Positions 18,940 to 46,578 are shown, counted from the first letter of the stretch. The stretch is 64,000 bases of DNA from an uncultured bacterium (GCA_963727525.1 CAVSGO010000006.1:256001-320000), one strand, 5' to 3'. The notes: generated from the sequence alone by a model not told the origin. Made by a program: numbers and translations.

Positions 18940-18957
18940 CGCGCCGGGCGGTGCGAC

Positions 18958-19791
18958 GTGACGGATCTCTACAAGACGATCGAGGCCTTGCGCCGGGACG
19001 GGCAGGCCGCCGTCCTGGTGACTGTGGTGGCGAGCCAGGGCCACGTACCCACCGATGTGGCCAGCAAGATGCTCGTGGACGCGTCGGGACGACGGGTCGG
19101 AACCGTGGGCGGCGGGGCCATCGAGCAACGGGCCCTGTTCGACGCGCAGGACGTGCTGCGGCAGCGGCAGCCCCGCCTGCAGGAGTACGTGCTTGACGAC
19201 GCCGAGGCCGTGCACGGCGCGCAGACCGTGCCGATGATCTGCGGCGGCCGCATGACGCTCTTCTTCGACTTCCTCGGGGCGGCCATGCATGCTTATCTCG
19301 TCGGTGCCGGGCACTGCAACCGGGCGCTGGCGCAATACCTCCTGCCGCTCGACTTCGCCGTGACCTTCGTCGACAGCCGTCCCGACCAGCTCGCCGGTCT
19401 CGCCGCGCCCACGTTGCAGGCGGGGGACGACTACGCCACGCTGCCTCTTCTTTCGCAGATCGCGACGAGTCACGTCGTCATCGCTACCCACTCGCACGTG
19501 TGCGACGAGCGTGTGCTCGAGCAGATCCTCGCCGGCGGGGTACGGCCCCCGTACCTGGGTGTGGTCGCCTCGCGGCGCAAGCGTGACGCGATGTTCGCCG
19601 GATTGCGCGAGCGTCTCGGCGCCGATCTGGATCTCGACTGGATCTCCATGCCAGTCGGTCTGCACCTGGGGGGTAATGCGCCGGCGGCCGTGGCCCTGTC
19701 CATCGCCGCCGAGATGCAGGCCTGCCGCCACGGCATCACCGGCCACCGGCACCTGCGCGACCGCGGCGGCGCCGGGCGGGCGACGTCGTGA
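18958..19791 (+). CDS. xdhC: Xanthine dehydrogenase accessory protein XdhC/CoxI
   Basis: GTVGGGAIE, MICGG, VGAGH, THSH-x-x-D, YLGVVASRRK, PVGLHLGG...VALSIAAE. Confidence 0.92.
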   Translation: MTDLYKTIEALRRDGQAAVLVTVVASQGHVPTDVASKMLVDASGRRVGTVGGGAIEQRALFDAQDVLRQRQPRLQEYVLDDAEAVHGAQTVPMICGGRMTLFFDFLGAAMHAYLVGAGHCNRALAQYLLPLDFAVTFVDSRPDQLAGLAAPTLQAGDDYATLPLLSQIATSHVVIATHSHVCDERVLEQILAGGVRPPYLGVVASRRKRDAMFAGLRERLGADLDLDWISMPVGLHLGGNAPAAVALSIAAEMQACRHGITGHRHLRDRGGAGRATS

Positions 19792-24761: not shown

Positions 24762-24873
24762 GATCGAACGAAGCCACCACTGCAAAAATCCGTCTTTCAA
24801 CTGATCACCCTCGATCGTTCCTGGAGTGATGATTCGTCGCGAGGTGTCGGGGGATGCCAAGTGGACGAACTGG

Positions 24874-24906
24874 GCGGGCCGACCGAGGGGGCGGCCCGCT
24901 TCTTCA
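24874..24906 (+). terminator. Possible intrinsic terminator
   Basis: GCGGGCCG / CGGCCCGC stem followed by TTCTTC. Confidence 0.4.
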
Positions 24907-25093
24907 TGTCCGGCTGTCGGCTCGCGCGGTGCGGAGCCAGACTCGCAACCGTGCCTTGACTCCCGCCGTGCGGCTCCTATGCTTCCGCCGCTCTGGCCGC
25001 AGCCCGCGGCCGGCACGCAGCCCGCGGCAGACGGGTGGCGTCGGCGTGAAAGGGCGGCGGCGCATGGCGAAGGTATGGGGTGGGCCGGGCGAG

Positions 25094-30190: not shown

Positions 30191-30324
30191 GGTGGGCCTT
30201 TCCCTGGAGGTGAGGGGCGCCGGTCCGCGAAATATAACGGGCGCGGTCGCCTTCTCCTAGTCGCAGATCGGGGTGGCAATCTCGGCGCCGCCGAGCAATG
30301 CTAGATGAGCGAGGAGGTCTCACC

Positions 30325-31521
30325 ATGACAGTGGCAGCGCAGATCCGCGCACTGGCCGCGCAGTATCGCGCCGATACCGCTGCGGGCCTCGGCCGCCTGA
30401 TTCGCCACCGGTCGGTCAGCGGGCAAGAGCGGGACGTCATTCAGGAGCTGGCGCGCCAGATGGAGGCGGCCGGCTTCGACGAGGTGCGGATCGACGGACT
30501 GGGCAACGTGATCGGGCGTATCGGGTCGGGGCCGCGGGTGCTGGCCATCGACGCGCACATGGACACCGTCGACGTTGGCAACCCCGCCAACTGGCACTTC
30601 GACCCGTTCATCGGTGACGTTCACGAGGACCATGTCCGGGGCCGCGGCAGCGTGGACCAGGAGGGCGGGGCGGCGGCCATGGTCGCGGCCGGGCGCATTC
30701 TCCGCGACATCGGCGTGCCCGCGGACCTCACGCTCCTATGCACCGGCACCGTGATGGAGGAAGATTGCGACGGCCTCTGCTGGAAATACCTCATCGAGGA
30801 GGAGGGGCTGAAACCGGATGTCGTGATCAGCACCGAGCCTACCAACCTCGGCGTGTACCGCGGCCAGCGCGGTCGCATGGAGATCGAGGTGACGTTTCGT
30901 GGGCGCTCGGCGCACGGTTCCGCGCCGGAGCGCGGGATCAACGCGATCTACGCCGCGTCCCGGGCCTGCCTCGAGATCGAGAAGCTCGACGCGCGTCTCG
31001 CGCACGATCCGTTCCTGGGCAAGGGAACCTGCACCGTCACCCAGATGGTGACGGGATCGCCGTCGCTCTGCGCCGTGGCCGATATGGCCCGCATCCACGT
31101 GGATCGGCGTCTCACAGCGGGGGAGACGCGCGAGTCGGCGGTGGCCGAGATCGCGGCGCTGGTGGAGGGGCTCGAGGCCACGGTCGAGGTGCTGCACTAC
31201 GAGGGCCAGGCTTACACCGGCGCGCGCTACGGCATGGAGATGTACTTCCCCACCTGGGTGATGCCCGCCGATCATCCGGCGGTGATGACCGGAGTTGCCG
31301 TGGCCACCGAGCTTTTCGGCGCGCCGCCGGTGGTGGACAAATGGACCTTTTCCACCAACGGCGTCACCATCAACGGGATCCACGGCATCCCCGTGATCGG
31401 TTACGGCCCCGGCGACGAGCGCTTCGCCCATGCGCCCGACGAGCAGGTGCCGGTCGACGACCTCGTGAAGGCTTCGGCCTTCTATGCGCTCTACGCGCTG
31501 AGGCATGCGCAGCCGGCGTGA
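30325..31521 (+). CDS. ygeY: YgeY-family M20 hydrolase
   Basis: DAHMDTV, GRGSVDQEGG, MEEDCDGLCW, YRGQRGRME, DKWTFSTNG, AHAPDE. Confidence 0.93.
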   Translation: MTVAAQIRALAAQYRADTAAGLGRLIRHRSVSGQERDVIQELARQMEAAGFDEVRIDGLGNVIGRIGSGPRVLAIDAHMDTVDVGNPANWHFDPFIGDVHEDHVRGRGSVDQEGGAAAMVAAGRILRDIGVPADLTLLCTGTVMEEDCDGLCWKYLIEEEGLKPDVVISTEPTNLGVYRGQRGRMEIEVTFRGRSAHGSAPERGINAIYAASRACLEIEKLDARLAHDPFLGKGTCTVTQMVTGSPSLCAVADMARIHVDRRLTAGETRESAVAEIAALVEGLEATVEVLHYEGQAYTGARYGMEMYFPTWVMPADHPAVMTGVAVATELFGAPPVVDKWTFSTNGVTINGIHGIPVIGYGPGDERFAHAPDEQVPVDDLVKASAFYALYALRHAQPA

Positions 31522-31602: not shown

Positions 31603-32796
31603 ATGGACACCGAGCTGACCCGCCTCGTCGATCGCATCGCCGCCCGCCCGGTCGAGCTGTACGGCCAGGATATGCTCCTGACCTGGGAGAAGAGCCTCGA
31701 CGCGCTGCGCACTCTGCTCGATGTGGCCGAGGCGCTGCGGCGCCTGCGCGCCGCCGGTGTGAGTCCACGCTGCTTCGACACGGGGCTGGCCGTATCGCAG
31801 TTCCGCGACAACTCCACGCGCACACGCTTCTCCTTCGCGTCGGCGGCCAACCTGCTCGGGCTGACGGTGCAGGACCTGGACGAGGGCAAGTCGCAGATCG
31901 CGCACGGGGAGACGGTGCGCGAAACGTCGGTCATGATCTCGTTCCTCAGCGACGTGATCGGTATCCGCGACGATATGTACCTGGGCGCGGGCCACGCGTA
32001 CATGCTCGAGGTGGCCGCCGCCCTCGACGCCGCCTGCCGAGATGGCGTGCTGCCGCAACGTCCCGCCGTGGTGAACCTGCAGTGCGACCTCGACCACCCC
32101 ACACAGACGCTGGCCGATCTCCTGCATCTGGTGCACGAGTTCGGATCGCTCGAAAACCTGCGGGGCAAGACGTTGGCCATGACCTGGGCCTACTCTGCGA
32201 GCTACGGCAAGCCGCTGTCCGTACCCCAGGGCATCCTGGGCCTTATGACGCGCCTGGGCATGGACGTGGTGCTGGCCGCCCCGCCCGGCTACGACCTGGT
32301 TCCCGACGTGGTGACGCAGGCGGCGCAGCAGGCGACAGAGAGCGGCGGCCGGTTGCGGCGGGCCGACAGCATGGCCGAGGCGTTCGCGGGCGCGGACATC
32401 GTCTACCCCAAGAGCTGGGCGCCCTATCGCGTGATGGAGCTGCGCACGGCGCTGCTGCGTGCGCGCGACCAGGCGGGCCTGGCCGAGCTGGAACGCGCCT
32501 GCCTCGCGCAGAACGCCGAGTACGCCGACTGGGAGTGCACCCGCGACCTCATGGATCGTACCCAGGGCGGCGCCGCGCTCTACCTGCACTGCCTGCCCGC
32601 CGACATCACGGAGGTGTCGTGCGCACGCGGCGAGGTGGCGGCCGACGTATTCGAGAAGTACCGCGATCCGCTCTACCGCCAGGCGAGTTTCAAGCCCTAC
32701 GTGATCGCCGCCATGATCCTCTGTAGCCGCTTCCGCGACCCGGCCGGCCTGCTGCGCGCGCTGGCCGGGCGTGCGGCGCCGCGTCTGATGGGATAG
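31603..32796 (+). CDS. ygeW: Knotted carbamoyltransferase YgeW
   Basis: FRDNSTRTRFS, KSQIAHGETVRET, NLQCDLDHPTQ, WAYSASYGKPLSVPQG, VYPKSWAP, HCLPADI. Confidence 0.95.
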   Translation: MDTELTRLVDRIAARPVELYGQDMLLTWEKSLDALRTLLDVAEALRRLRAAGVSPRCFDTGLAVSQFRDNSTRTRFSFASAANLLGLTVQDLDEGKSQIAHGETVRETSVMISFLSDVIGIRDDMYLGAGHAYMLEVAAALDAACRDGVLPQRPAVVNLQCDLDHPTQTLADLLHLVHEFGSLENLRGKTLAMTWAYSASYGKPLSVPQGILGLMTRLGMDVVLAAPPGYDLVPDVVTQAAQQATESGGRLRRADSMAEAFAGADIVYPKSWAPYRVMELRTALLRARDQAGLAELERACLAQNAEYADWECTRDLMDRTQGGAALYLHCLPADITEVSCARGEVAADVFEKYRDPLYRQASFKPYVIAAMILCSRFRDPAGLLRALAGRAAPRLMG

Positions 32797-32800
32797 GCCG

Positions 32801-35800
32801 ATGAACGCCGAGATACGCCCGCAAGAGTTCCGTCCTCTCGATTTCGATCGCCTGCTCGACTGGTGGCTGCGCGAGCGGAGGACGCGGGGGACGGTCTTTG
32901 GCCTGCACGAGGATCTCTTTCGCCTTCGCTTGCGCGGCCGAGGCTACGCACTGCGCCGACGCGGCTGTCTGTGCGAGACACCGGTGGGCGTGGCCGCGGG
33001 ACCTCATACCCAGCTTGCCCAGAATATCGTCGCCGCCTGGCTCTGCGGGGCACGCGTACTCGAGCTGAAGACGGTGCAGGCGAGCGACGCGTTGACGATC
33101 GCGCGGCCATGCATCGACATGACCGACGAGGGCTACAACTGCGAGTGGTCGCAGGAACTGCCTCTGGACACGAGCCTCGCCCAGTATGTCGACGCCTGGA
33201 CGCTCATCCGCCTACTCCAGCACGAGGCGGGCGGCTACGACGCTGCCGAGCCGGGCTTCCTCTTCGACCTCAGCGTGGGCTACGACCTGGCCGGCATCAC
33301 GAGCGCCCCCATGCAGCGTTTCCTCGACCGCCTGGACGACGTGCGCGGCGAGGTGGCCCACCGGCTGGCCCTGGCCCGGCCGCGATTGCCCTGGCGATTC
33401 GACATCGCGTTGCCCCGCGCACTGACGCCGAGCGTCACCCTGTCGACGATGCACGGCTGTCCGCCGGAAGAAATCGAGCGTATCGGTCGCCACCTCATCG
33501 AGGAACGCGGCCTGGCCACCACGATCAAGCTGAATCCCACGTTGCTCGGAGCCGAGGCCGTGCGCGAGCTGCTGGGCGCGCGCCTTGGCTACACGGTCGA
33601 CGTGCCCGACGACGTCTTCGCCAACGACCTCGACCTCACGGCCGCCGTGGCGGTGATCGACGCGCTCGCCGCCAGCGCGCGGCGGCGCGGCGTGGAGTTC
33701 GGCGTGAAGCTCACGAATACCCTGGCCTGCCGCAATCGGCGCGGCGTATTGCCGGCCTCGGAGTCCATGGTATATCTCAGCGGCCGCGCGTTGCACCCGG
33801 TGGCGGTGCACGCGGCCCTCGCGCTGCAGGAAGCGTGCGGCGGCGCGCTCGACGTGTCGTTCGCGGGTGGCGTGGACAGCCGCAACGTCGCCCGGGTCCT
33901 GGCCTGCGGCCTGCGGCCGGCCACCGCGTGCAGCGATCTGCTGCGCCCGGGCGGCTACCAGCGCCTCCACCAGTACCTGGACACGATCGAGGCGGCAATG
34001 ACGGCCGTCGGTGCGGGCGATCTCGACGCTCTCGTCAACGCCACGTCCGGCGAGCCCACGCGTCCGCTGCCCACGGCGATGCTGGCGAACCTGCGCGCCT
34101 ATGCTCGCGAGGTCGTCGAAGACCCCGCCTACCAGCGCGCCACCTATCCCGACCGCACGATCAAGACCGACCGCGCACTCACCGACTTCGACTGCATCGA
34201 GGCGCCGTGCCGGCACACGTGCCCGGCCCACCAGGATGCGCCCGAGTACCTGCACCACGTGGCGGCGGGCGACGACGACGCGGCGCTGGCCGTGGTGCTG
34301 CGCCACAACCCGCTGCCCACCGTCACGGGGATGGTCTGCGACCGGCCGTGCGAGCAACGGTGCACGCGCGTGCATTACGACGCGGTGGTGGGGATCCGCG
34401 ACGTGAAGCGCTACCTCGCCCACCGCGGGGCCGCCTTGCCGGACGCGCGCTGTGCGGCGCCGAACGGCCGGCGGGTGGCCGTGATCGGCGCCGGCCCGGC
34501 GGGGCTCGCCTGTGCCGACGCGCTCGTGGCCGCGGGTGTGTCCGTCACCGTCTTCGAAGCCCGGGCCGCGGCGGGCGGCATGGTGGCGGGCGCGATCCCG
34601 GCCTTCCGGTTGCGCGACAACGACCTGGCGCGCGATCTGCAGCGTCTCGTGGCCGCTGGGGTCGATCTGCGCTGCGGCGAATTCATCGCTGCCGCTCACC
34701 TGGACGAGTTGCGACGCACGTACGACGCGGTCTTCGTGGGCGTGGGCGCCCAGGGCGACCGGCCGCTCGGCGTTCCCGGCGAGGACCGACCGGGCGTGGT
34801 GCCGGCCCTGCACTTCCTGCGCGCCGCGCGGCGCGGCGAGACGCTGCCGACCGGCGAGAGCGTCGTGGTGATCGGCGGAGGCAACACGGCGATGGATGCC
34901 GCGCGCACCGCGGTGCGGTTGGTCGGCGGCGCCGGCGTGCGCCTTGTATATCGCCGGACACGCGCCGAGATGCCGGCCGCGCGCGAGGAATTGCAGGCCA
35001 TCGTCGACGAGGGCGTCACCATCCTCGCGTTGCTTGCGCCCATGGCCATTGCCGGCCGCGACGATGGTCGCCTCGACCTCACCTGCCGGCCGCAGCGCCT
35101 TGGCGCCCCCGACGCCTCGGGACGGCCGCGTCCGGAACCGACCGATGAACCACCCGTGACGCTGGTCTGCGACGTGGTCGTGCCCGCGGTGGGGCAGGTC
35201 GTGACGGGTGACCTGGTGCCGAATGATCGGCTCGGAGGCGGGGGCGAGGTCGCCGTCTACTGGGGTGGTGACGCGCGACGCGGCCCGGCCACCATCGTCG
35301 ATGCGATCGCCGACGGCCGCCTGGCCGCGGCCGCGATGCTGGACACGTTCCGTCAGGTGGCCATGCCACCGGCGGATCCGACACCACGGCACCTCTCGCT
35401 CGCGGCATGGCAGGACCGCGCCGCGCGCCTCGTGCCGCCGCAACGTGCCGCCGTGCGCATCGATGCCGGCCGGGGCGACTTCACGCTGGTCACGGGTGAA
35501 CTCACGACCGCGCAGGCGCGCGCGGAGGCTGCCCGCTGCCTCGACTGCGGCGAGCGCTGCGACGTGTGCGTGTCTGTATGTCCCAACCGCGCCAACCTCG
35601 GCTACGACGTGCGGCCCGTGCGCTGGCCGCTGCTGCGCATCGCGCGCCGCGGCGAAGGGTTCGACCTCGTGCCCGACGGCACGTTCGTGGTGACGCAGAC
35701 GCATCAGACGTACCACGTGGTCGACTTCTGCAATCTCTGCGGCAATTGCACCACGTTCTGCCCCACGGATGGCGCACCGTTTCGCGACAAGCCGCGCTTC

Positions 35801-36112
35801 GCGATGCACGCGGCCACATACCGCGAGGGCGACGACATCCACCTGCTCACGCGCCACGGGCAGGAGGGGCTACGGATCCGTCACCTCCGGGGTGACACGG
35901 AGACCACCCTGACGCAGCGCGGCGACACGCTCGTGTACGCCACCGCCGACGTGCGAGTGGAACTGAACGCCAGCACCTTCGCCGTACAGCGTACGATGTT
36001 ACTGGCCGGCGCGGGCGAGGACGTCGATCTGCGACCCGCCGCGCGCCTGGCGGTGCTGTTGCGGGCGCTCGCGGCATCGCCCGTGGCCGTGCCAACCGAT
36101 GAATCGTTGTAG
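32801..36112 (+). CDS. ygfK: YgfK-like Fe-S/flavin oxidoreductase (annotated as putative selenate reductase subunit)
   Basis: GVAAGPHTQLAQNI, STMHGCPPEEIE, KLNPTLLG, VKLTNTL; GltD-like CxxxCP, GAGPAG and GGGNTAMD; C-terminal ferredoxin motifs. Confidence 0.93.
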   Translation: MNAEIRPQEFRPLDFDRLLDWWLRERRTRGTVFGLHEDLFRLRLRGRGYALRRRGCLCETPVGVAAGPHTQLAQNIVAAWLCGARVLELKTVQASDALTIARPCIDMTDEGYNCEWSQELPLDTSLAQYVDAWTLIRLLQHEAGGYDAAEPGFLFDLSVGYDLAGITSAPMQRFLDRLDDVRGEVAHRLALARPRLPWRFDIALPRALTPSVTLSTMHGCPPEEIERIGRHLIEERGLATTIKLNPTLLGAEAVRELLGARLGYTVDVPDDVFANDLDLTAAVAVIDALAASARRRGVEFGVKLTNTLACRNRRGVLPASESMVYLSGRALHPVAVHAALALQEACGGALDVSFAGGVDSRNVARVLACGLRPATACSDLLRPGGYQRLHQYLDTIEAAMTAVGAGDLDALVNATSGEPTRPLPTAMLANLRAYAREVVEDPAYQRATYPDRTIKTDRALTDFDCIEAPCRHTCPAHQDAPEYLHHVAAGDDDAALAVVLRHNPLPTVTGMVCDRPCEQRCTRVHYDAVVGIRDVKRYLAHRGAALPDARCAAPNGRRVAVIGAGPAGLACADALVAAGVSVTVFEARAAAGGMVAGAIPAFRLRDNDLARDLQRLVAAGVDLRCGEFIAAAHLDELRRTYDAVFVGVGAQGDRPLGVPGEDRPGVVPALHFLRAARRGETLPTGESVVVIGGGNTAMDAARTAVRLVGGAGVRLVYRRTRAEMPAAREELQAIVDEGVTILALLAPMAIAGRDDGRLDLTCRPQRLGAPDASGRPRPEPTDEPPVTLVCDVVVPAVGQVVTGDLVPNDRLGGGGEVAVYWGGDARRGPATIVDAIADGRLAAAAMLDTFRQVAMPPADPTPRHLSLAAWQDRAARLVPPQRAAVRIDAGRGDFTLVTGELTTAQARAEAARCLDCGERCDVCVSVCPNRANLGYDVRPVRWPLLRIARRGEGFDLVPDGTFVVTQTHQTYHVVDFCNLCGNCTTFCPTDGAPFRDKPRFAMHAATYREGDDIHLLTRHGQEGLRIRHLRGDTETTLTQRGDTLVYATADVRVELNASTFAVQRTMLLAGAGEDVDLRPAARLAVLLRALAASPVAVPTDESL

Positions 36113-36146
36113 CGAAGAGACATTGTCGCGACGAGAGGCTGTGACC

Positions 36147-37325
36147 GTGGCGCGCTTCGCCTTCAATCCATACCGCCAGGATCTCCCGCGCTGGGAGGCG
36201 CCGGATCTGGGGTTCACCGCGCTCATCCGTGAGCGCGCAGCCCTCGCGCTGCACCGCGCGTTGCCGGGCTACGCGCCCACGCCGCTGGTCCGCGCGCCCG
36301 CCGCGGCGGCGGCGGCCGGCGTGGGCGAGGTGCTAGTGAAGGACGAGTCGGGGCGCTTCGGCATCGACGCCTTCAAGGGGCTGGGTGCGAGCTTCGCCAT
36401 GTACACGGTGCTGCGTCGGCGCTGGGCCGACCTCACCGGCGACGACCTGGAGCCCACGGCGTTCCGCGATCCCACCGTGCGCGCGCGGCTGGGCGCCGTC
36501 ACCTTCACCGCCGCCACCGACGGCAACCACGGTCGCGCCGTGGCCTGGACCGCACGCATGCTCGGCCAGCGCGCCGTCATCTTCATGCCCACGTGCACGG
36601 CGGCCGCGCGGATCGCCCATATCGAGCGCGAGGGCGCCACCGTGCATCTCCTGCCGGGCACCTTCGATGACTGTGTCACGACCTGCGCGCGCACCGCCGC
36701 GGCCGAGGGATGGCAGGTGATCGCCGACACCGCCTATCCCGGTAACATGGACCTTCCGGGCTTCATCATGGCCGGCTACGGCACCATCTTTGCCGAGATC
36801 GCCGATGCCGGCGGATTCGACGTGGACGCGATCTTCCTGCCCGCCGGAGTGGGCGGTCTGGCGGCGGCCGGCGCCGTCTCGTGCGTGCAGCAGCGCGGTG
36901 CCGCGCGTCCGCGGCTGGTATGTGTGGAACCGCTGTCGTCGGCCTGCTTCCTCGAGTCGATCGAGCGCGGCGGTGGCGCATCCGAAGCCGCCACGGGCGA
37001 TCAGCAGTCGATCATGGTGGGATTGTGCTGCGGTGTGCCCTCGCTCCTGGCCTGGCCCGTGGTGCGCGACACGATGGACCTTTTTCTCGCCATCGAAGAC
37101 GAACCTGCCCGCGACGCCATGCGGGTGTATCATCGCGACGGCATCATCTCTGGCGAGTCGGGGGCGGCGGCGCTGGCGGGTCTGCTCGCCCTGCAAGAGC
37201 GAGGCGACCTGGCGCCGGCGCGTGCGCGCCTCGGACTCGGCCCCGGCAGCCGCGTACTCGTGATCAACACCGAGGGTGCCACGGATCCGCAGTACCACCA
37301 GCGCGTGATCGCGGAGGCGATATGA
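36147..37325 (+). CDS. dpaL: Diaminopropionate ammonia-lyase (DpaL/YgeX)
   Basis: PGYAPTPL, VKDESGRFGIDAFKGLGAS, ATDGNHGRAVAW, IMAGY, GESGAA, NTEGATDP. Confidence 0.92.
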   Translation: MARFAFNPYRQDLPRWEAPDLGFTALIRERAALALHRALPGYAPTPLVRAPAAAAAAGVGEVLVKDESGRFGIDAFKGLGASFAMYTVLRRRWADLTGDDLEPTAFRDPTVRARLGAVTFTAATDGNHGRAVAWTARMLGQRAVIFMPTCTAAARIAHIEREGATVHLLPGTFDDCVTTCARTAAAEGWQVIADTAYPGNMDLPGFIMAGYGTIFAEIADAGGFDVDAIFLPAGVGGLAAAGAVSCVQQRGAARPRLVCVEPLSSACFLESIERGGGASEAATGDQQSIMVGLCCGVPSLLAWPVVRDTMDLFLAIEDEPARDAMRVYHRDGIISGESGAAALAGLLALQERGDLAPARARLGLGPGSRVLVINTEGATDPQYHQRVIAEAI

Positions 37326-39889
37326 GCGACGTGCGCTTCACACTCAACGGGGAGACGGTCGTCGACACGGGCGATCCGTCACGCAGCCTGCTGGCGTACC
37401 TGCGCGAGGAGCGCGGCCTCACCGCCGCCAAGGACGGTTGCAGCGGCGAGGGCACGTGCCGCGCGTGCACGGTGGAGATCGGCGGCCGCGCGAAGCTCGC
37501 CTGCCTCACCGCCATGCGGACCCTCGACGGACGCGAGGTGACCACCGTCGAGGGGCTCCCGGCCGCAGTGCGTGACATCATCGCCCACGCGTTCGTGCGC
37601 CATGGCGCCGTGCAGTGCGGTTTCTGCACGCCGGGCTACCTGGCCCACACGCGCGTGCTACTGGCGCAGAACCCGCGGCCATCGCGAGCCGACGTCGTGG
37701 CCGCGCTGCGTCACCACGTGTGCCGCTGCACGGGCTACCACGCCGTCGTTGATGCCGTGCTCACGGCCGCCGCGATCCTGCGCGGCGAGCAGGCGTTGGC
37801 CGCACCGGGGTCGCCCGGTGTCGGCCGCGACCTGCCCAAGTACCGGGCCCACGACCGCGCCCGCGGCGCGGTGGCCTTCGTCGACGACCTGCGCGTGCCG
37901 GGGTTGCTGCATGGCGCGCTGCGCTTCAGTGACCACCCGCGCGCCCGGATCACGCGCCTGGACACCGCCCGCGCCGCGGTCATGCCCGGCGTGGTGCGCA
38001 TTTTCACCGCCGCCGACGTGCCAGGCCAGCGTCATACCGGCCTGATCATCGCCGACTGGCCGCTCCTGGTCGCCGAGGGCGAGACCACCCGCTACATCGG
38101 CGACGCGCTGGCGCTCGTGGTGGCCGGCACCGCGGCGCGGGCGCGCGCGGCCGCGGCCGGCATCGATGTCGCCTACACCGTGCTACCGCCGCTCACGGAT
38201 CCCGAGCAGGCGCTTGCCAGCCCGATCCACGTGCACGCGGGGGGCAATCTGCTCGAGGAGAGCCACATCCAGCGTGGGGGCGATGTCGATGCCGCCCTGG
38301 CCGCGTCTACCTTCACCGCGCGCGGTACCTTCACCACGCAGCGCATCGAGCACGCCTTCCTCGAGCCCGAGGCGTGCCTGTCCGAGCCGGCGCCCGAGGG
38401 AGGCGTGGTGGTGCACTCGAGCGGCCAGGGCGTGTACGTGGATCGCACGCAGATCGCGTCGCTGCTCGACCTGCCGCGCGAGCGCGTGAGGGTGAACCAG
38501 GTATCCAGCGGTGGCGCCTTCGGCGGCAAGGAAGACCTCTCCGTGCAGGGACACGCCGCGCTTGCGGCGCACGTGCTGCAGCGGCCGGTCAAGGTGACGC
38601 TGTCGCGCGGCGAATCGATCCGCATGCACCCCAAGCGCCACCCGCTGCGCATGACCTACACTTTGGGTTGCGATGCGCGGGGGCGGCTCACCGCGCTGCG
38701 CGCCGACATCCTCGGCGACACCGGCGCCTACGCTTCCGTGGGCGGCAAGGTCCTCGAGCGCGCGGGCGGGCACGCTACCGGCGCCTACCACGTGCCGTGC
38801 GTCGACGTGGTCGCGCGCGCCGTGTACACCAACAACCTGCCTTGCGGGGCCATGCGCGGCTTCGGTGTGAACCAGGTGACGTTCGCCATGGAGAGCTGCC
38901 TTGACGACCTGTGCGCGCAGGGCGGCTTCGACCGCTGGCAGATCCGCTACGACAACGCGCTCACGGCCGGGTGCATGACGGCCACGGGGCAGGTGCTGCA
39001 CGATGGCGTCGGCGTGCGCGACACCCTTCTGGCCGTGAAGGATGCCTACGATCGCGCCGCCTGCTGCGGCCTCGCCTGCGGCATCAAGAACTGCGGCATC
39101 GGCAACGGCATGGCTGACTGGTGCGAGGTGGCCATCGACGTCGCGGCGCCCGACCGCGTGGTCGTGCGCCATGGCTGGACGGAGATGGGCCAGGGCGTGC
39201 ACACCGTGGCGCAGCAGGTCGTGGCGCAGGAGACGGGCCTCGATCCGGCGCACATCGACGTGGTCGTGTCCACGGCCGACGGCGCCGAGGCCGGCATGAC
39301 CACCTCCAGCCGCGGCACCTCCCTCGTGGGCAACGCCCTCCTGCCCGCGGCCCGCGACCTGGCGCGCGATCTCGCGGCCCACCCGCTGGCCGACCTCGTG
39401 GGGCGCACGTACCGCGGCCGCTGGAGCTTCGATCGCTCCACCGCGCCCGGAGCCCAGGGCGAGGTCGTCACGCACTACTCTTATAGCTACGCCACGCAGC
39501 TCGTGGAACTCGACGCGCAGGGCGCCATCGCCCGCGTGATCGCCGCCCACGACGCGGGGCGCATCATCAACCCGGCGCTATTCCAGGGCCAGATCCAGGG
39601 CTCCGTGCACATGGGGCTGGGCTACGCGCTGAGCGAGGCGCTGCCGCAGACCGACGGCGGCCTGCCACCGCTGCGGCTGCGTGACCTCGGGCTGCTGCCG
39701 ATGGACCGCACACCACCCATCGCGGTGATCGGTGTCGAGGTGGCCGACCCGCTCGGCCCCTACGGCGCCAAGGGCGTGGGTGAAGTGGGGCTCGTACCCA
39801 CGGCGGCGGCCGTGGCCGGTGCGCTGCGCGCGTTCGATGGTCGGCAGCGCACACGCCTGCCCCTGGACCCGGCGGAGGCGCGGTCATGA
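37322..39889 (+). CDS. xdh: Selenium-dependent-type molybdenum hydroxylase (fused 2Fe-2S + Mo subunit)
   Basis: AAKDGCSGEGTCRAC, QCGFCTPG, CRCTGY, GGAFGGKED, HPKRHP, GAMRGFG, GIKNCGIGNG, AGMTTSSRGT, GAKGVGEVG; single 855-aa chain inside the ygeWXY cluster. Confidence 0.88.
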   Translation: MSDVRFTLNGETVVDTGDPSRSLLAYLREERGLTAAKDGCSGEGTCRACTVEIGGRAKLACLTAMRTLDGREVTTVEGLPAAVRDIIAHAFVRHGAVQCGFCTPGYLAHTRVLLAQNPRPSRADVVAALRHHVCRCTGYHAVVDAVLTAAAILRGEQALAAPGSPGVGRDLPKYRAHDRARGAVAFVDDLRVPGLLHGALRFSDHPRARITRLDTARAAVMPGVVRIFTAADVPGQRHTGLIIADWPLLVAEGETTRYIGDALALVVAGTAARARAAAAGIDVAYTVLPPLTDPEQALASPIHVHAGGNLLEESHIQRGGDVDAALAASTFTARGTFTTQRIEHAFLEPEACLSEPAPEGGVVVHSSGQGVYVDRTQIASLLDLPRERVRVNQVSSGGAFGGKEDLSVQGHAALAAHVLQRPVKVTLSRGESIRMHPKRHPLRMTYTLGCDARGRLTALRADILGDTGAYASVGGKVLERAGGHATGAYHVPCVDVVARAVYTNNLPCGAMRGFGVNQVTFAMESCLDDLCAQGGFDRWQIRYDNALTAGCMTATGQVLHDGVGVRDTLLAVKDAYDRAACCGLACGIKNCGIGNGMADWCEVAIDVAAPDRVVVRHGWTEMGQGVHTVAQQVVAQETGLDPAHIDVVVSTADGAEAGMTTSSRGTSLVGNALLPAARDLARDLAAHPLADLVGRTYRGRWSFDRSTAPGAQGEVVTHYSYSYATQLVELDAQGAIARVIAAHDAGRIINPALFQGQIQGSVHMGLGYALSEALPQTDGGLPPLRLRDLGLLPMDRTPPIAVIGVEVADPLGPYGAKGVGEVGLVPTAAAVAGALRAFDGRQRTRLPLDPAEARS

Positions 39890-41160
39890 GCCTGTACCTG
39901 CGCGACGTCACCTTCTGGGATCGCCACGTCGGCACGCTGCACCGCGGCGGACTGGTGGTGGAGTCGGGTCCGGGCGGACGTTTGCGCCCCACGCACGAGC
40001 TGCCTACCGGGGACGACACGGTGCTCGACTGCGCCGGCAAGCTGGCCATGCCGGCCTTCACGTGCGCCCACCATCACGTGTACTCGGCCCTCGCCCGCGG
40101 TATGCCGGTGCCGCCACGGCCACCGCGCACCTTCGCGGAGATCCTCGAGCTGGTGTGGTGGCGGCTCGATCGCAGCCTCGACCGCGACATGGTGCGCGCC
40201 AGCGCCCAGGCGGCGGCCATCGACTGCGTGCGCTGCGGCGTCACGCGCGTGATCGACCACCACAGCTCGCCGCACGCGGTGCCGGGCGTACTGGGCACGA
40301 TCGCATCGGCCCTCGAGGAGGCGGGCATGACCCACGTGCTCTGCCTCGAGCTGAGCGACCGCGATGGTCCCGCCACCGTGGAGGCCGGCCTGGCCGAGAC
40401 CGACACCTATCTCGCGAGCGGCCGACCGGGCCTCGTGGGGCTGCACGCGTCGTTCACCGTGGACGACGACCTCCTGCGCCGCGCCGTGGACCTCGCCCGC
40501 AAGTACGACACGGGCCTGCACCTGCACGCGGCGGAGGCACCCCTCGACGAGGACCGCTGTCTCGCGGAGCACGGCGTGCGCGTGGCCACGCGCCTGGCCG
40601 AGGCCGGCGCGCTCGCGCTGCCGGGCACCCTGCTCGCACACGGGCTGCACCTCGATGCGACCGAACGGGAACTCGTGCGCGCATCCGGCGCCTGGGTGGT
40701 CCAGAATCCCGAAAGCAACCAGAACAACGGCGTCGGCACGTTTCGCTGGGACGGACTCGATCCCGACCACGTCCTGCTCGGCACCGACGGCCTGCATGGC
40801 GACATGCTGCGCAGCGCACGCGCCGCCTTCCTCGCGGGGCGTGGCGCGGGCGAGAGCGATGCCTCGCTCGCGTGGCGGGCGCTCAGCAACAACGAGCGCT
40901 ACCTCGCCCGGCATCACCCGGTCGCACTGCGGCGCAACGACGTGGTCATCCTCGACTACGCGCCGCCCACCCCGCTTCAGGCGGGCAACCTGATCGCCCA
41001 CGCGTTCTTCGGGCTGGACGCGCGCCAGGTCTGGACCGTGATCGCCGACGGTGGCATCGTGCTGCAGAATGGCGAACTCACCCTCATCGACGAGGCCGAG
41101 ATCCTGCGGGCGTGCCGCGACCAGGCGACGCGTCTGTGGGACCGGCTATCGCGGACGTAG
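39886..41160 (+). CDS. ssnA: SsnA-like metal-dependent amidohydrolase
   Basis: CAHHHVYSALARGM, EILELVWWRLD, IDHHSSP, GLHASFT, HLHAAE, NPESNQNNGVG, LGTDG. Confidence 0.88.
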   Translation: MSLYLRDVTFWDRHVGTLHRGGLVVESGPGGRLRPTHELPTGDDTVLDCAGKLAMPAFTCAHHHVYSALARGMPVPPRPPRTFAEILELVWWRLDRSLDRDMVRASAQAAAIDCVRCGVTRVIDHHSSPHAVPGVLGTIASALEEAGMTHVLCLELSDRDGPATVEAGLAETDTYLASGRPGLVGLHASFTVDDDLLRRAVDLARKYDTGLHLHAAEAPLDEDRCLAEHGVRVATRLAEAGALALPGTLLAHGLHLDATERELVRASGAWVVQNPESNQNNGVGTFRWDGLDPDHVLLGTDGLHGDMLRSARAAFLAGRGAGESDASLAWRALSNNERYLARHHPVALRRNDVVILDYAPPTPLQAGNLIAHAFFGLDARQVWTVIADGGIVLQNGELTLIDEAEILRACRDQATRLWDRLSRT

Positions 41161-41174
41161 CCAGGAGCTGTTCC

Positions 41175-42644
41175 ATGATTCCCATCATCGACACCGTCAC
41201 CGACACCGCCGTCCGCGACCGGGCCGTGCAACGCTACCGCGAGCGCGGCATCGTACTGCCCACGTTCGCCCAGATGCGCGACCCCTCGCGCGTGCCGGCG
41301 AAGATCGCGGCACGCCTGGCCCACGTCGGCCTCGTGGACCGCGACCCCCTCAACCTCTTTCGCATCACCTGGAAGAATGCCCCGCAGGACCACGGCGGCG
41401 GCTTCGGTGGCGTGAATTTCATGGAACTTCCGCCGTCACTCACCGGCGTGCCGGCGCGCATCGTTGCCCTGGTGGGCAAATGGTTCCCCACGGGCGCCCA
41501 CAAGGTGGGAGCGGCCTATGGCTGCCTGGCGCCCAAGATCATCAGCGGCGGCTTCGACCCCACGTATCACAAGGCCGTGTGGCCGTCGACGGGCAATTTC
41601 TGCCGCGGCGGCGCCTTCGACTCGTACCTCATGGATTGTACGGCCGTGGCCATCCTGCCGCAGGAGATGAGCCGAGAACGCTTCCAGTGGCTGGAGGAGA
41701 TCGGCGCGGAGGTCATCGCCACGCCCGGCTGCGAATCGAACGTCAAGGAGATCTACGACAAGTGCTGGGAGCTGAAGCGTACGCGCCCCGACGTCGTGAT
41801 CTTCAATCAGTTCTCCGAGTTCGGCAACGCGGCCTGGCATTACACGGTGACGGGCGCGGCCATCGCCGAGGTGGCGGCGCAGCTTGGCGGCACGCTGGCA
41901 GCTTACGTGTCTGCCACCGGCTCGGCCGGCACCATTGCGGCGGGCGACTACCTGCGAACGCTCGCGCCGCAGCTCCGCGTCGTGGCGAGCGAGGCTCTGC
42001 AGTGCCCGACCCTGCTGAGCAACGGCTTCGGCGGTCACCGCATCGAGGGCATCGGCGACAAGCACGTGCCCTGGATCCACAACGTCCGCAACACCGATGC
42101 CGTGGCGGCCATCGACGACGACGACTGCATGCGTCTGCTGCGCCTCTTCAACGAGCCCACCGGGCAGGCCGAGCTGGCCGCGGCCGGCGTGCCGCGCGAG
42201 ACCATCGCGAGCCTCCCGCTGCTGGGCATCTCGAGCATCGCCAATCTGCTGGCCGCCATCAAGACGGCGCGCTGGTACGAGTTCGGCAGCGACGATCTGA
42301 TCGTCACCGTGGCCACCGATTCCGTCGACCTCTACCAGACGCGCCTCGCCGAGCTGACGGCCGAGCACGGTCCGTACACGCCCGTCCAGGCCGCCCGCGA
42401 TCACGACCGTTGCCTCCTGGGCCAGCGCACCGACGCCTTCAAGGAGCTGACGTATCCCGACCGCAAGGCCATCCACAACCTGAAGTACTACACCTGGATC
42501 GAACAGCAGCAGATGGAACTGGCCGACCTGGAGGCCCTGTGGTGGGACCGCACCATCTGGCCGCGCATCTTCGATCAGCCAGCGCGCTGGGACGAGATGA
42601 TCGCCGAGTTCAACGACCTGACCGGAGTGCTCGCGCGCTTCTGA
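41175..42644 (+). CDS. Fold-type II PLP-dependent enzyme of unknown substrate
   Basis: AGGAG RBS; WFPTGAHKVGAA (PLP Lys), WPSTGNFCRGG, TGSAGT, HRIEGIGDKH. Confidence 0.88.
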   Translation: MIPIIDTVTDTAVRDRAVQRYRERGIVLPTFAQMRDPSRVPAKIAARLAHVGLVDRDPLNLFRITWKNAPQDHGGGFGGVNFMELPPSLTGVPARIVALVGKWFPTGAHKVGAAYGCLAPKIISGGFDPTYHKAVWPSTGNFCRGGAFDSYLMDCTAVAILPQEMSRERFQWLEEIGAEVIATPGCESNVKEIYDKCWELKRTRPDVVIFNQFSEFGNAAWHYTVTGAAIAEVAAQLGGTLAAYVSATGSAGTIAAGDYLRTLAPQLRVVASEALQCPTLLSNGFGGHRIEGIGDKHVPWIHNVRNTDAVAAIDDDDCMRLLRLFNEPTGQAELAAAGVPRETIASLPLLGISSIANLLAAIKTARWYEFGSDDLIVTVATDSVDLYQTRLAELTAEHGPYTPVQAARDHDRCLLGQRTDAFKELTYPDRKAIHNLKYYTWIEQQQMELADLEALWWDRTIWPRIFDQPARWDEMIAEFNDLTGVLARF

Positions 42645-42657
42645 TGGGGAGGACGGC

Positions 42658-44052
42658 GTGGATGGGTTCGTGATCACCGACACGACGCTGGTCGACGCCG
42701 ACACCATGCGCGACGCCAGCCTGCGTGTCGCCGGCGCGCGCATCGCCGAGGTGCTTCCAGCGCGTCTGCGCCGCGGTGATCTCGCGGATCTCTGTGCGCG
42801 CCACCAGCTCGCCGTCGTCGACGGCCACGACCGTTGGGTCATCCCCGGCGGTGTGGATCCGCACGTGCACTTCGCGCTGCCGGCCGGCGACACGGTGACC
42901 ATCGACGACTTCGCCTCAGGCACCCGTGCCGCCCTCGCCGGGGGCACCACCACCGTGGTCGATTTCGTCACGCCGGCTCGCGAGGAACCGTTGGTCGCGG
43001 CCACGGAGGCGCGGCTCGCGATCGCCGCCGACGCGGCCTGCGACTACCACCTCCACCTCAGCGCCACCGCCTGGCGACCGGGACTTGCCGACGAGTTGAT
43101 CGCCTGCGCCGCCCGCTTCGGCACGCGTTCGGTGAAGGTGTACCTGGCCTACCTCGACACCATCGGTCTCGCCGCTGACGTGCTCCCCGCGGTTCTGCGG
43201 GCCTGCGCATCCGCAAACCTCACCGTGCTCGTGCACGCCGAGGACGGTGCCGAGATCGCCCGCCGGCAGCGTGAGCTGCTGGTGGCGGGACAGAGCGGCG
43301 TGGCGTCGCATGCGCGCGCGCGGCCGCCGGCGACGGAGGCGCGCGCCATCGCCAGGGTTCTCGCCGCCGCAGCGACCGCAGGTTGCCGCCTCTACGTCGT
43401 GCACGTTTCCACGGGCGACGGCATCGCGGCGATCGGCAGTTCGCGCGCGGCAGGACAGGTCGTCTATGCCGAGACCTGCCCGCAGTATCTGTTGCTGGAC
43501 GAGTGCGTGTACGAAGGCCCGTTCGACGTGGCGGCTCCCTTCGTCATGAGTCCGCCGCTGCGCGGAGCGGCCGACCGTGCGGCCCTCGCGGGCGCCGTCG
43601 CCGACGGCCAGTTCGACGTCGTCGCCACCGACCACTGCGCCTTCACCCACGCGCAGAAGGCCCGCGGCCGCGACGACTTCACCCGCATCCCCGGCGGTGT
43701 GGCCGGTGTGGAGCACCGTCTCGCCCTCGCCTACACCGCCTTAGTCGCCACCAACTGCCTGGCCGCCACGGACTGGGTGCACCTGGTCAGCCGGCGGCCC
43801 GCCGAGATCTTCGGCCTCCACCCACGCAAGGGCAGCCTGGAGCCCGCCGCCGACGCCGACCTCGTGCTCTGGGATCCCTCGTTTGCCGGTACCATCCGCG
43901 CGAGCGAATCTCACAGCCGCTGCGACCACAGCATCTACGAAGGTATGGCCATCCGCGGTCGTCCCGAGCGCGTATGGTCACGAGGCGAGGAGGTCGTCAG
44001 GAACGGAAGCGTGAGCGCGACGACGGGACGTGGGCGCTACCTCGGGGCGTAG
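42658..44052 (+). CDS. hydA: Dihydropyrimidinase/hydantoinase (HydA/HyuA)
   Basis: PGGVDPHVH, GGTTTVVDF, KVYLAY, HAE, ETCPQYL, MSPPLR, TDHCAF, ADADLVLWDP. Confidence 0.93.
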   Translation: MDGFVITDTTLVDADTMRDASLRVAGARIAEVLPARLRRGDLADLCARHQLAVVDGHDRWVIPGGVDPHVHFALPAGDTVTIDDFASGTRAALAGGTTTVVDFVTPAREEPLVAATEARLAIAADAACDYHLHLSATAWRPGLADELIACAARFGTRSVKVYLAYLDTIGLAADVLPAVLRACASANLTVLVHAEDGAEIARRQRELLVAGQSGVASHARARPPATEARAIARVLAAAATAGCRLYVVHVSTGDGIAAIGSSRAAGQVVYAETCPQYLLLDECVYEGPFDVAAPFVMSPPLRGAADRAALAGAVADGQFDVVATDHCAFTHAQKARGRDDFTRIPGGVAGVEHRLALAYTALVATNCLAATDWVHLVSRRPAEIFGLHPRKGSLEPAADADLVLWDPSFAGTIRASESHSRCDHSIYEGMAIRGRPERVWSRGEEVVRNGSVSATTGRGRYLGA

Positions 44053-44067: not shown

Positions 44068-45290
44068 GTGCCACGAAGAATGTTGACGGGTCCAGCGCTT
44101 GCCTGGGCCCGTCCTCATGAACACCAAAACACTCACTTCATGCCCTACGCTTCCTCCCCACTGCCCCAACCCTAACTGCAAATACCACAAGCCTCAGCCG
44201 CAACCCTGGCCCTTCGCGCTCTTCGGCACGTTCTCCCGAAAATCCCCGCCCTACACCGTCCAGCGCTACCTCTGCCTGGCCTGCGGCAGGACCTGCTCAG
44301 ACCAGACCTTCCGCACCACATACTGGCTCAAACGCGCCGATCTCCTGCCCAAGGTCCACAAGCACGCCGTCTCTGGCGCCGCCAACCGCCAGATCGCCAG
44401 GCTCCTCGACACCTCGCCGACGACCGTCGACAACCTCCTCGCCCGCCTCGGCCGACACTGCATCCTCTTCCATCGACACCTGGTGTCCCAGGCGTCACCC
44501 TTCGTGGACATCGCCATCGACGGCCTCGTCACCTTCGAGCACTCCCAGTACTTCCCCTACGAGATCGTCACGGCCGTCGATCGCCCCTCCAGCTTCATCA
44601 TCCACTTCGCCGAGGCCGAGCGACGACGCAGCGGGGCGATGACCGACGAGCAGAAATGGAAACGGTCCCTCTTTGAACAAAACTATGGCCGGCCGGACCC
44701 CAGGTCGTTGATGCGGGCGCTGCTCGAGGTGCTCTCGGTCTCGCTCGACGGCGCCACCGAGGCCCACATCTGGAGCGACAAGCACAAGACCTATCCCTAC
44801 GCGATCGCGAAGCTACGGTATTGCAAGGTGATCCACGAGACGATCGACTCCCGTCAGCCGCGGACGAGTCGCAACCCGTTGTTCGAGGTCAACTTGCTGG
44901 ACATGTTGCTGCGGCATTGTCTGAAAGACCACACGCGGGAGACGATCGCGTTCGGGAAGCGACGCCAGCATTCGATCTACCGGCTGGCGATCTTCCTGGT
45001 GTGGCGCAACACGATCAAGTTGCGTCGGGAGAAGCGGTGCTGGAGCACGCCGGCGATGCAGATCGGGATCGCCACGAAGCCTTTGACCGAGGAGGAGGTG
45101 TTGTCGCGGCGGCTGTTCGTGTCGCATATCGAGTTGCCGCCGTTGTGGGATGACTACTACTGGCGACGGGTCGAGACGCGGCCATTGAAGGTGAACCGGA
45201 GGCACAAGCTGACATACGCCGCGTAGTGAGAAAGGCGGGCCTGGCCGGGAGTACCGGGGCTCAAGGCGCCAACAACATTCTTCTTGGCAC
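44068..45290 (+). mobile_element. Insertion sequence, 1223 bp, with 18-bp terminal inverted repeats and AAC flanking direct repeat
   Basis: IRL GTGCCACGAAGAATGTTG (44068-85) versus reverse complement of IRR GTGCCAAGAAGAATGTTG (45273-90), 17/18 identical; AAC at 44065-67 and 45291-93. Confidence 0.88.
44117..45226 (+). CDS. Transposase (Zn-ribbon + HTH + DDE-like core; IS1/IS1595-like architecture)
   Basis: CPNPNC...RYLCLACGRT zinc ribbon; RQIARLL HTH; IAIDG, WSDKH-x-x-Y acidic motifs; TPAM-x-IG; enclosed by the inverted repeats. Confidence 0.82.
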   Translation: MNTKTLTSCPTLPPHCPNPNCKYHKPQPQPWPFALFGTFSRKSPPYTVQRYLCLACGRTCSDQTFRTTYWLKRADLLPKVHKHAVSGAANRQIARLLDTSPTTVDNLLARLGRHCILFHRHLVSQASPFVDIAIDGLVTFEHSQYFPYEIVTAVDRPSSFIIHFAEAERRRSGAMTDEQKWKRSLFEQNYGRPDPRSLMRALLEVLSVSLDGATEAHIWSDKHKTYPYAIAKLRYCKVIHETIDSRQPRTSRNPLFEVNLLDMLLRHCLKDHTRETIAFGKRRQHSIYRLAIFLVWRNTIKLRREKRCWSTPAMQIGIATKPLTEEEVLSRRLFVSHIELPPLWDDYYWRRVETRPLKVNRRHKLTYAA

Positions 45291-45351
45291 AACTGAAGTC
45301 ATGGTAGGATCAGGGCCCATGGGTGCGAAACGTCCACACGAGGACCTGATC

Positions 45352-46323
45352 ATGAGCGGTCTCGCTGACGGTATCGGCGGTTTCCTCGCTCGCGAGGAGC
45401 CTGGGCCGGTGTTCGCGGGCCTCGCTGCCGGCGACCTCTTCGTGGCCACCGGGCGTGGGGCCCTGCAGGTGGTGATCGAGCAGACGGGCGCCCGGGTGCT
45501 CCACCTGCCCGACTGGCACTGCGATACCCTGCGTGAACCCGCCGCGCGGCTGGGCGTCGCGATCCGCACCTATCCTGTAGACGCCGCGCTCGGTCCCACG
45601 CGTGCTCCTGACCCCGGCCCCGGCGAACTTCTCCTCGTGATCGATGCGTTCGGGCTCCATGGCGAGGCGACCTGCGCGCTGGCCGACGCGTTCGGTGCGC
45701 GCCTCGTCGTCGATCGCACCCAGGCGATGTTCGCGGACCCGCCGGCCGGGGCGTGGTCGTTCGACTCGGTGCGCAAATTCCTCGGCGTGATGGACGGCGC
45801 CCGGCTGACCGGGCCCGCCGGCTGGCAGCCGCCGATCCTGCCTCCGGGGCCCGAGCGGTCGAGCGTGCACTTGGAGCTGCGGGCCGCCGGACTGCGCGAC
45901 GAGGCCTATACCGCCTTCGCCATGCACGAGGCGAGTCTGAGCGGTCCCCCGGTCGCCGCCACTGTGGCCACGCGGGCCATGCTCGCCCGCCTTGATCCCG
46001 CGTGGATCCGGTCGCGACGGCGCGCCAACTGGCGCCGCCTCCACGCGGCACTGGCGGAGCTGGGTACGCTCGACCTGCCTGCCGAGCATCCTGGCGTGCC
46101 TTTTGCTTACCCCTTGCTGGCGTCGACCGATCCCGACCGGGAGGCGATGCTCGCCGCCCGGGTCTTCGTGCCGACACTCTGGCCCGAGCGATTGCACGAC
46201 GAGGGCCGCGTCGCGACGATTGCCCGGCGGCTGCTCCCGTTGCCCCTCGACCAGCGCTACGAAGGCGATGCCATGGCGCGCGTCATTCGCGTCGCCAGAG
46301 CCGCGCTGGAGGTGAATCGATGA
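45352..46323 (+). CDS. Divergent DegT/DnrJ-like PLP-fold protein
   Basis: IGG-F, TGRGAL, LP-x-x-x-C, VDRTQA, SVRKFLGVMDGA, RRRANW, LPLDQRY. Confidence 0.7.
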   Translation: MSGLADGIGGFLAREEPGPVFAGLAAGDLFVATGRGALQVVIEQTGARVLHLPDWHCDTLREPAARLGVAIRTYPVDAALGPTRAPDPGPGELLLVIDAFGLHGEATCALADAFGARLVVDRTQAMFADPPAGAWSFDSVRKFLGVMDGARLTGPAGWQPPILPPGPERSSVHLELRAAGLRDEAYTAFAMHEASLSGPPVAATVATRAMLARLDPAWIRSRRRANWRRLHAALAELGTLDLPAEHPGVPFAYPLLASTDPDREAMLAARVFVPTLWPERLHDEGRVATIARRLLPLPLDQRYEGDAMARVIRVARAALEVNR

Positions 46324-46578
46324 CCAAGCCGTGGCCGGGCCTCGTCCGCGCCGCCCTCGCCCTGCACACGGTCGTGGGAGTGGCGTCCCGGACGACCGGC
46401 ACCGGGCGGTCTCCGACGGGTTTGTCTCATTCTGGCGATGAGGACGGGCGTTCAGGGAAAAATCGGGAGTTGACCACTGGCTTTCAGAGGCGTGCCGACC
46501 TATCGTGGAACTGATCGCCCGTCGCACCTCGGTTCGTCGTCCCGTGCCGATCTGTGGGCTTTTCCGACCGGAGCCGTC

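Follow-up and report, generated by a model that had tools for sequence, protein, structure and literature searches.

What does a second fold-type II pyridoxal phosphate (PLP) enzyme do in an operon that already encodes the full set of enzymes for a purine degradation route? The question is raised by a 64,000-nucleotide stretch of DNA from an uncultured bacterium (GCA_963727525.1, CAVSGO010000006.1:256001-320000; hereafter the window), in which family scans identified the tightly packed array ygeY-ygeW-ygfK-dpaL-xdhD-ssnA-PLP490-hyuA on one strand. By these scans, no enzyme of the published reductive urate route is missing; a carbamate kinase is located elsewhere in the genome, outside the array, and one extra PLP protein, here termed PLP490, is present. 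Translation and scans agreed with the original prediction of a 489-residue PLP enzyme with the motifs PTGAHK, STGN and TGSAGT between ssnA and the hydantoinase gene, and the dpaL gene said to lie intact alongside it scored above the cut-off of its family model (Table 1). Our tentative answer, drawn from sequence comparison, is that PLP490 may be a dedicated member of the reductive (2,8-dioxopurine) purine/urate pathway and provide its lower part with a side entry or salvage step by means of aminoacrylate chemistry. The pathway as published in 2025 probably lacks one player.

According to the main text of Li et al. (2025), an SsnA-type enzyme opens the ring of reduced 2,8-dioxopurine, and PF00291 was used as the YgeX marker when SsnA neighbourhoods were coloured. 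The published reconstitutions, as described in the main texts, comprise eight enzymes, and PLP490 is not among them. Term look-ups in the main texts of Li et al. (2025), Liu et al. (2025) and a Prevotella preprint revealed no second PLP enzyme besides YgeX. Full-text searches of the literature returned no paper describing the PLP490 family, and a guanidine review offers only speculation on the cluster. The window shares orthologue-level ygeY, ygeW, ygfK, dpaL, xdhD, ssnA and hyuA with the reductive urate cluster of E. coli and Clostridium but differs from it by the additional PLP490 gene and by a genome without a yqeB or yqeC match. That PLP490 is foreign to the E. coli cluster, as first supposed, is borne out by the annotated K-12 cluster, which contains no counterpart.

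PLP490 appears to be an intact and catalytic PLP enzyme of the CysK fold. Its sole Pfam match is PF00291 (PALP; 63.4 bits, cut-off 35, residues 105-337), which assigns it to fold-type II, and the three motifs are present as FPTGAHK with Lys110, PSTGN (residues 137-141) and SATGSAGT (residues 247-254). The closest solved structure is a cysteine synthase (7n2t, E 5.8e-20). A profile built from 30 family members covers whole CysK chains, over PLP490 residues 73-392 only; this is the fold-type II core shared with CysK and cystathionine beta-synthase (CBS; PDB 7n2t, 8t2c, 6c2h). Within the core, Lys110 is nearly invariant (kept in at least 90% of the 30 members) and aligns to the Schiff-base lysine of CysK, the Gly-rich phosphate loop SATGSAGT aligns to GIGTGGT, and the S-T-G-N carboxylate loop with its Asn and the GISS serine are kept and aligned to their CysK equivalents. 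The CysK sequences NTGIG and GIGAGF are replaced in the family by N(Y/F)CRG and GIGDKH, two loops with family-specific polar residues (N-Y/F-C-R and GIG-D-K-H) which would line the substrate pocket. PLP490 also departs from the single domain of about 300 residues typical of CysK and CysM: the core is flanked by extensions of 72 residues at the N-terminus and 97 residues at the C-terminus, which gave no Pfam match but are both conserved family-wide (e.g., P29, P37, W66, H434, K437, W441 and W462).

The nearest characterised relatives of PLP490 are cysteine synthases, and several sources label its homologues 'cysteine synthase'. We therefore considered whether PLP490 is a plain cysteine synthase with a housekeeping role, or a biosynthetic beta-synthase of another kind, whose place in the operon is accidental. 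Similarity to CysK is, however, weak. The best NCBIfam match, cysK (TIGR01139), reached 102.7 bits against a cut-off of 350.95, and the other cysteine synthase models gave 100.3 bits (TIGR01136, cut-off 344.15) and 45.8 bits (TIGR01138, cut-off 394.2). Scores were also far below cut-off for the SbnA-type diaminopropionate biosynthesis model TIGR03945 (47.1 against 349.95 bits) and for threonine synthase and Ser/Thr dehydratase models (18-21 against 380-577 bits), and the DpaL models NF006058 and TIGR03528 were absent among the 11 NCBIfam matches at E<=0.001. Nine divergent relatives, like PLP490 itself, fall outside all curated NCBIfam models, and an ESM Atlas search returned only unnamed "pyridoxal-phosphate dependent enzyme" clusters. 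In addition, the genome has a separate CysK-like gene, whose product is 34% identical to PLP490 over residues 125-323. The low score, the two conserved extensions, the separate CysK-like gene and a gene context that is conserved across phyla and points to purine catabolism rather than sulfur assimilation led us to reject the housekeeping explanation, to which we attach next to no probability; the earlier view that PLP490 is no ordinary cysteine or threonine synthase stands.

PLP490 is predicted to be co-transcribed with the known pathway genes of the array. Its start codon lies 14 nt past the ssnA stop, behind a ribosome-binding site (Table 1), and hyuA starts with GTG at position 42658, 13 nt past the PLP490 stop and preceded by GGGGAGGA. 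Further upstream, the xdhD start codon, as read from the sequence, overlaps the dpaL stop (ATGA). In a simple scan of the window no promoter-like sites were found; the five terminator-like sites are no excess over the shuffled-control mean of 3.8, and the gaps on either side of PLP490 are free of them.

In a word-indexed search, in which 8000 candidates were scored, the best 119 non-self relatives among the matches listed were 68-81% identical to PLP490 over their full length (487-515 residues), so that chance similarity is no issue. A library clustered at 50% identity contained 344 representatives at E<=1e-30, mostly fragments, with few full-length members of 34-49% identity. From a scan of one genome per species, the best 80 loci were kept out of at least 592 confirmed stretches (at least 600 listed); they stem from Bacteroidales, Aminicenantes, Acidobacteriota, Krumholzibacteria and others. 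The content of these loci was determined by tblastn with the proteins of the window (E<=1e-20, coverage at least 50%). At least one pathway gene was found in 73 of the 80 loci, and two of the seven loci without any are shorter than 6 kb. Among the 44 loci of at least 15 kb, 42 contained at least one core gene (YgfK, XdhD, SsnA, HyuA, YgeW or YgeY) and 30 at least three. Co-localisation with ssnA, xdhD, ygfK, hyuA, ygeW and ygeY is thus what is observed for PLP490, as for a member of the pathway gene set.

The association extends to whole genomes. Five genomes have PLP490 at a distance from most or all other purine genes; each of them (5/5) encodes an SsnA orthologue at another site, and the fetched stretches indicated that the pathway genes are simply scattered. 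Twenty relatives of the window's genome were scanned with the SsnA family model: PLP490 and an SsnA-like protein occurred together in 14, neither in four, SsnA alone in two (one of them 82% complete) and PLP490 alone in none. A stricter SsnA protein query (E<=1e-60) detected only six of the 20, an undercount because orthologues of about 40% identity drop out at this threshold. The co-occurrence check across genomes that the original prediction called for thus turned out positive for loci, split genomes and relatives alike, in keeping with its view that the purine cluster includes an extra enzyme not described before.

In many phyla the PLP490 family accompanies SsnA-type clusters, and its conservation resembles that of lower-pathway enzymes and is the highest among cluster members. 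Median identities to the proteins of the window were 68% for PLP490, 63% each for YgeY and YgeW, 54% for XdhD, 46% for SsnA, 42% for HyuA and 40% for YgfK. A FastTree phylogeny on 59 of 141 rows, with the large groups thinned to one row in three and the window, the outgroup and all divergent members retained, separated two subfamilies, both with an SH-like support of 100. PLP490 of the window grouped with sequences from DpaL-type Aminicenantes and Acidobacteria (support 99), and the CysK-like protein of the same genome was placed on a very long branch.

Whole-genome searches of 50 of the 80 loci's genomes showed what accompanies PLP490. YgeY was present in 46 of them. DpaL scored over the cut-off in 11 and a ThrC-like protein was found in 39; exactly one of the two occurred in 48 genomes, both in one and neither in one. 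Hence, DpaL and the ThrC-like enzyme alternate while PLP490 stays constant. The ThrC-like protein, a PLP enzyme of about 416 residues (L068:4225-5598 and 38 other genomes), probably acts as terminal lyase without being an orthologue of DpaL. PLP490 as a replacement of DpaL was rejected, as a terminal-lyase candidate was found in 49 of the 50 genomes, and the DpaL bypass that had been suggested at the outset is not supported. YgeX/DpaL itself (Li et al. 2025; Liu et al. 2025) resembles PLP490 in being a fold-type II enzyme of the same operon with a PF00291 domain. Unlike it, PLP490 matches no DpaL model, and it co-exists with DpaL in the window and in the 11 genomes; the partner with which DpaL alternates is the ThrC-like protein, not PLP490.

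Two cluster types were distinguished. The usual order in Bacteroidota is mocA< ygfK> PLP490> ThrC-like> xdhD> ssnA> (214 aa)> hyuA> <ygeW <ygeY, and DpaL was not found near PLP490 in these clusters. Neither Pfam nor NCBIfam gave a match for the conserved protein of about 214 residues that is encoded between ssnA and hyuA (L071:9053-9733 and 10 further Bacteroidota loci). The type represented by the window has DpaL, no ThrC-like gene, and PLP490 directly before hyuA, an adjacency found in 11 loci from Krumholzibacteria, Aminicenantes, Acidobacteria and others. Where clusters are split, PLP490 pairs with HyuA, YgeY or the terminal lyase.

Natural fusions link PLP490 or its relatives to a second PLP enzyme or to SsnA. 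A search among longer proteins yielded 14 matches at E<=1e-30, and domain mapping of these revealed (i) ThrC-like::PLP490 fusions in P0271 (905 residues) and P0272 (914 residues); (ii) fusions of the PLP protein to a 505-residue PALP enzyme in P0276, P0277 and P0284, and in P0282, which is partial; and (iii) an SsnA::PLP fusion in P0275 (1000 residues). Full-length members number five in the P0275 cluster (all distinct, from contigs of 49-106 kb) and two in the P0276 cluster. Remaining matches were partial or messy and were excluded from the count. Among the fusions mapped, none was to XdhD or XdhC.

Through P0127, 80 loci were sampled from the second subfamily, a sister clade with 43-51% identity to PLP490, and genes were counted within 8 kb of the match. 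SsnA was found in 30, XdhD in 29 and a YgeW-like protein in 22 of these loci, and HyuA in only seven, YgeY in six, YgfK in five and DpaL in one. In 36 loci another PALP enzyme of about 505 residues lies directly downstream; it is distantly ThrC-like (26% identity to the Bacteroidota ThrC-like protein). Carbamoyltransferases, carbamate-kinase-like genes and luciferase-like reductases, the latter probably F420-dependent, are common. Among 31 sister-subfamily genomes with an SsnA cluster, YgeY scored over the cut-off in only three and a D-hydantoinase family member was present in 29; some clusters have other M20 hydrolases or PydA-like reductases, and some a second carbamoyltransferase. A further branch of sister loci, mostly from Hyphomicrobiales-type genomes (L092-L109, L121, L133 and L160), has FO synthase and other F420 biosynthesis genes on one side of the PLP gene and an operon of a two-subunit coenzyme A (CoA) transferase, a luciferase-like oxidoreductase and a LIV-type ABC transporter on the other; purine genes are absent.

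Which reaction might PLP490 catalyse in the purine clusters? PLP enzymes need a primary amine. Together with the kept carboxylate loop, this suggests that the substrate would be an alpha-amino acid. In the route as presented in the main texts of Li et al. (2025) and Liu et al. (2025), albizziin (3-ureido-alanine) and 2,3-diaminopropionate are the sole alpha-amino-acid intermediates, and PLP490 is placed at that level for this reason. PLP490 would bind one of these two compounds and expel the N-substituent at C3 to form a PLP-aminoacrylate, from which it might either release pyruvate or hand a re-substituted product to the terminal lyase. It would act as a side entry or salvage step of the lower pathway, not as a substitute for DpaL.

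Alternatively, PLP490 might be a racemase or epimerase that interconverts the D- and L-forms of 2,3-diaminopropionate or albizziin and so feeds a stereospecific lyase with the product of the D-hydantoinase route. Such a function is absent from the eight known enzymes, it would fit a constant PLP490 next to a varying lyase, and the PLP::lyase fusions are compatible with consecutive steps. Lys in FKGLG and Asp in TDGNHGR presumably serve the two isomers in E. coli DpaL. Both are kept in DpaL of the window (which aligns to PDB 5ygr at 7.6e-65), making a racemase seem superfluous there, yet PLP490 is still 73-81% conserved in DpaL-type lineages. Moreover, the CysK/CBS clade is not known to contain a racemase, and the CoA-transferase operons of the sister clade suggest a lyase rather than a racemase. 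According to the main text of Li et al. (2025), E. coli YgeX is equally active on both isomers; a D-specific HyuA combined with such an indifferent lyase could explain why E. coli needs no racemase. Taken together, we regard racemisation as unlikely, though less so than the two alternatives that follow.

The first of these is the albizziin urea-lyase proposed at the outset, i.e., beta-elimination of urea with direct formation of pyruvate, which would make YgeY and DpaL dispensable. The intact CysK-type aminoacrylate machinery is compatible with this reaction, as is the scarcity of bona fide YgeY in the sister-subfamily SsnA clusters. It is weakened by the retention of YgeY and of a terminal-lyase candidate in nearly all genomes of the window's subfamily (46 and 49 of 50, respectively) and by urease, which did not score over the cut-off in the window's genome or in any of the 50 PLP490 genomes. 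As to the sister clade, the other M20 hydrolases or the second carbamoyltransferase present in some clusters could remove the 3-ureido group. We therefore consider a urea-releasing bypass improbable.

The second concerns cofactor maturation. XdhD of the window scores as a selenium-dependent xanthine dehydrogenase (TIGR03311, Table 1), while the window's genome (96.7% complete) shows no match to YqeB or YqeC, the only components of the E. coli system that it lacks. YqeB scored over the cut-off in just one of 56 PLP490 genomes (none in the window's genome, 0/5 in the split set, 1/50). In local tblastn searches with the E. coli proteins, YqeB/YqeC were found in 61 of 72 long E. coli-type ssnA loci and in none of the 44 and 50 long PLP490 loci; PLP490, in turn, was found in none of the 72. 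All 72 control loci are from Gammaproteobacteria, and the contrast is therefore confounded by descent. For comparison, all cluster-bearing gut strains described in the main text of Liu et al. (2025) have YqeBC and SelD. SelD is present in the window's genome, with an in-frame TGA, and scored over the cut-off in 35 of the 50 PLP490 genomes. In Bacteroidota genomes (G010-G038) it often lies in an open frame of 734-839 residues, a length that suggests fusion with another domain. A ygfM-like match near PLP490 was found in none of the 44 close-relative loci of at least 15 kb.

From these data one could argue that PLP490 uses cysteine or selenocysteine as a source of sulfide or selenide for the labile S/Se ligand of the XdhD molybdenum cofactor in lineages without YqeB/YqeC, all the more as the PLP genes often adjoin xdhD. 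We give this explanation only a slim chance. Known molybdenum cofactor sulfurases use NifS-type enzymes of fold-type I. SelD is not found in all PLP490 genomes, split clusters pair PLP490 with HyuA, YgeY or the terminal lyase, and its fusions are to lyases and SsnA, not to XdhD or XdhC. The CoA-transferase operons of the sister clade hold no molybdenum enzyme, and such gene contexts speak against a role in sulfur or selenium supply, which had been raised originally as an alternative; what remains in its favour is the missing YqeB/YqeC. Slimmer still is the chance that PLP490 is the missing maturation factor of XdhD and represents a third, PLP-dependent route to an active molybdenum hydroxylase.

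Assignment of PLP490 to the lower purine pathway, with aminoacrylate chemistry, is favoured by the operon packing, the ribosome-binding site, the flanking gaps free of terminator-like sites, the kept PLP machinery, the pathway gene context, the co-occurrence with SsnA, the partner lyase and the fusions. Several points weigh against it. First, the window holds every enzyme of the published route, so that YgeY, which is present in most PLP490 genomes, or DpaL would seem to make any reaction on albizziin or diaminopropionate redundant. Second, urea as the leaving group would be a dead end given the lack of urease matches in the same genomes. Third, about 18 Hyphomicrobiales-type sister loci lie in CoA-transferase/luciferase-like/ABC-transporter operons beside F420 genes and contain neither purine genes nor a second PLP enzyme, indicating that the chemistry of the family is not restricted to purine intermediates. 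Fourth, enzymes of the CysK type have L-amino acids as their substrates. The pathway intermediates may, by contrast, be D-configured, since HyuA shows D-specificity and UacY is similar to a D-aminoacylase according to the main text of Li et al. (2025).

Table 1. Position of PLP490 and of the pathway genes in the window (coordinates counted from its first nucleotide).
Feature	Position	Strand	Remarks
PLP490, CysK-fold PLP enzyme of an uncharacterised family	41175..42644	+	489 residues plus stop; core ~73-392, family-specific extensions 1-72 and 393-489
PLP490 ribosome-binding site AGGAG	41162..41166	+	9 nt upstream of ATG; direct sequence read
SsnA-like amidohydrolase	39886..41160	+	NF005540 332 bits (below cut-off of 444); TIGR03314 302 bits
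HyuA-type D-hydantoinase/dihydropyrimidinase	42658..44052	+	TIGR02033 419 bits (cut-off 393)
DpaL/YgeX, 2,3-diaminopropionate ammonia-lyase, intact	36099..37325	+	NF006058 359 bits (cut-off 276)
XdhD-type Mo hydroxylase (urate -> 2,8-dioxopurine)	37322..39889	+	TIGR03311 881 bits (cut-off 830)
YgfK-type flavin/Fe-S reductase	32801..36112	+	TIGR03315 794 bits (below cut-off of 835)
YgeW knotted carbamoyltransferase	31603..32796	+	NF005538 641 bits (cut-off 453)
YgeY M20 hydrolase	30298..31521	+	NF009555 509 bits (cut-off 321)

The surroundings of the operon contain further genes. About 7 kb upstream, genes for an XdhC-like maturation factor and for a small Fe-S/FAD and a large Mo subunit form a second, conventional xanthine dehydrogenase set (18940-23476, + strand). 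The gene of a SulP-family transporter comes after it (24833-26752). Directly past hyuA, three open reading frames (44099-48381, + strand; 375, 365 and 629 residues) gave no family match, with the sole exception of a weak HTH_38/IS1-transposase-like match of the first. The genome encodes a second SsnA-like amidohydrolase (G000:C7:1534009-1535208; NF005540, 259 bits).

It was not until 2025 that anaerobic urate breakdown was worked out, in E. coli and Clostridia, and engineering of the pathway to treat gout is under way. PLP490 adds an enzyme to this pathway in a large proportion of environmental bacteria, which include Bacteroidota, Aminicenantes, Acidobacteriota, Krumholzibacteria-like lineages, Chloroflexota and Actinomycetota. 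The window is an informative case because DpaL and PLP490 co-occur in it, which separates an extra function from a replacement of YgeX. Surveys that take PF00291 as a marker of YgeX will count the PLP490 family and its ThrC-like partner as YgeX. The reaction of PLP490, once found, would complete the map of the pathway and might reveal new CysK-fold chemistry on N-substituted alanines.

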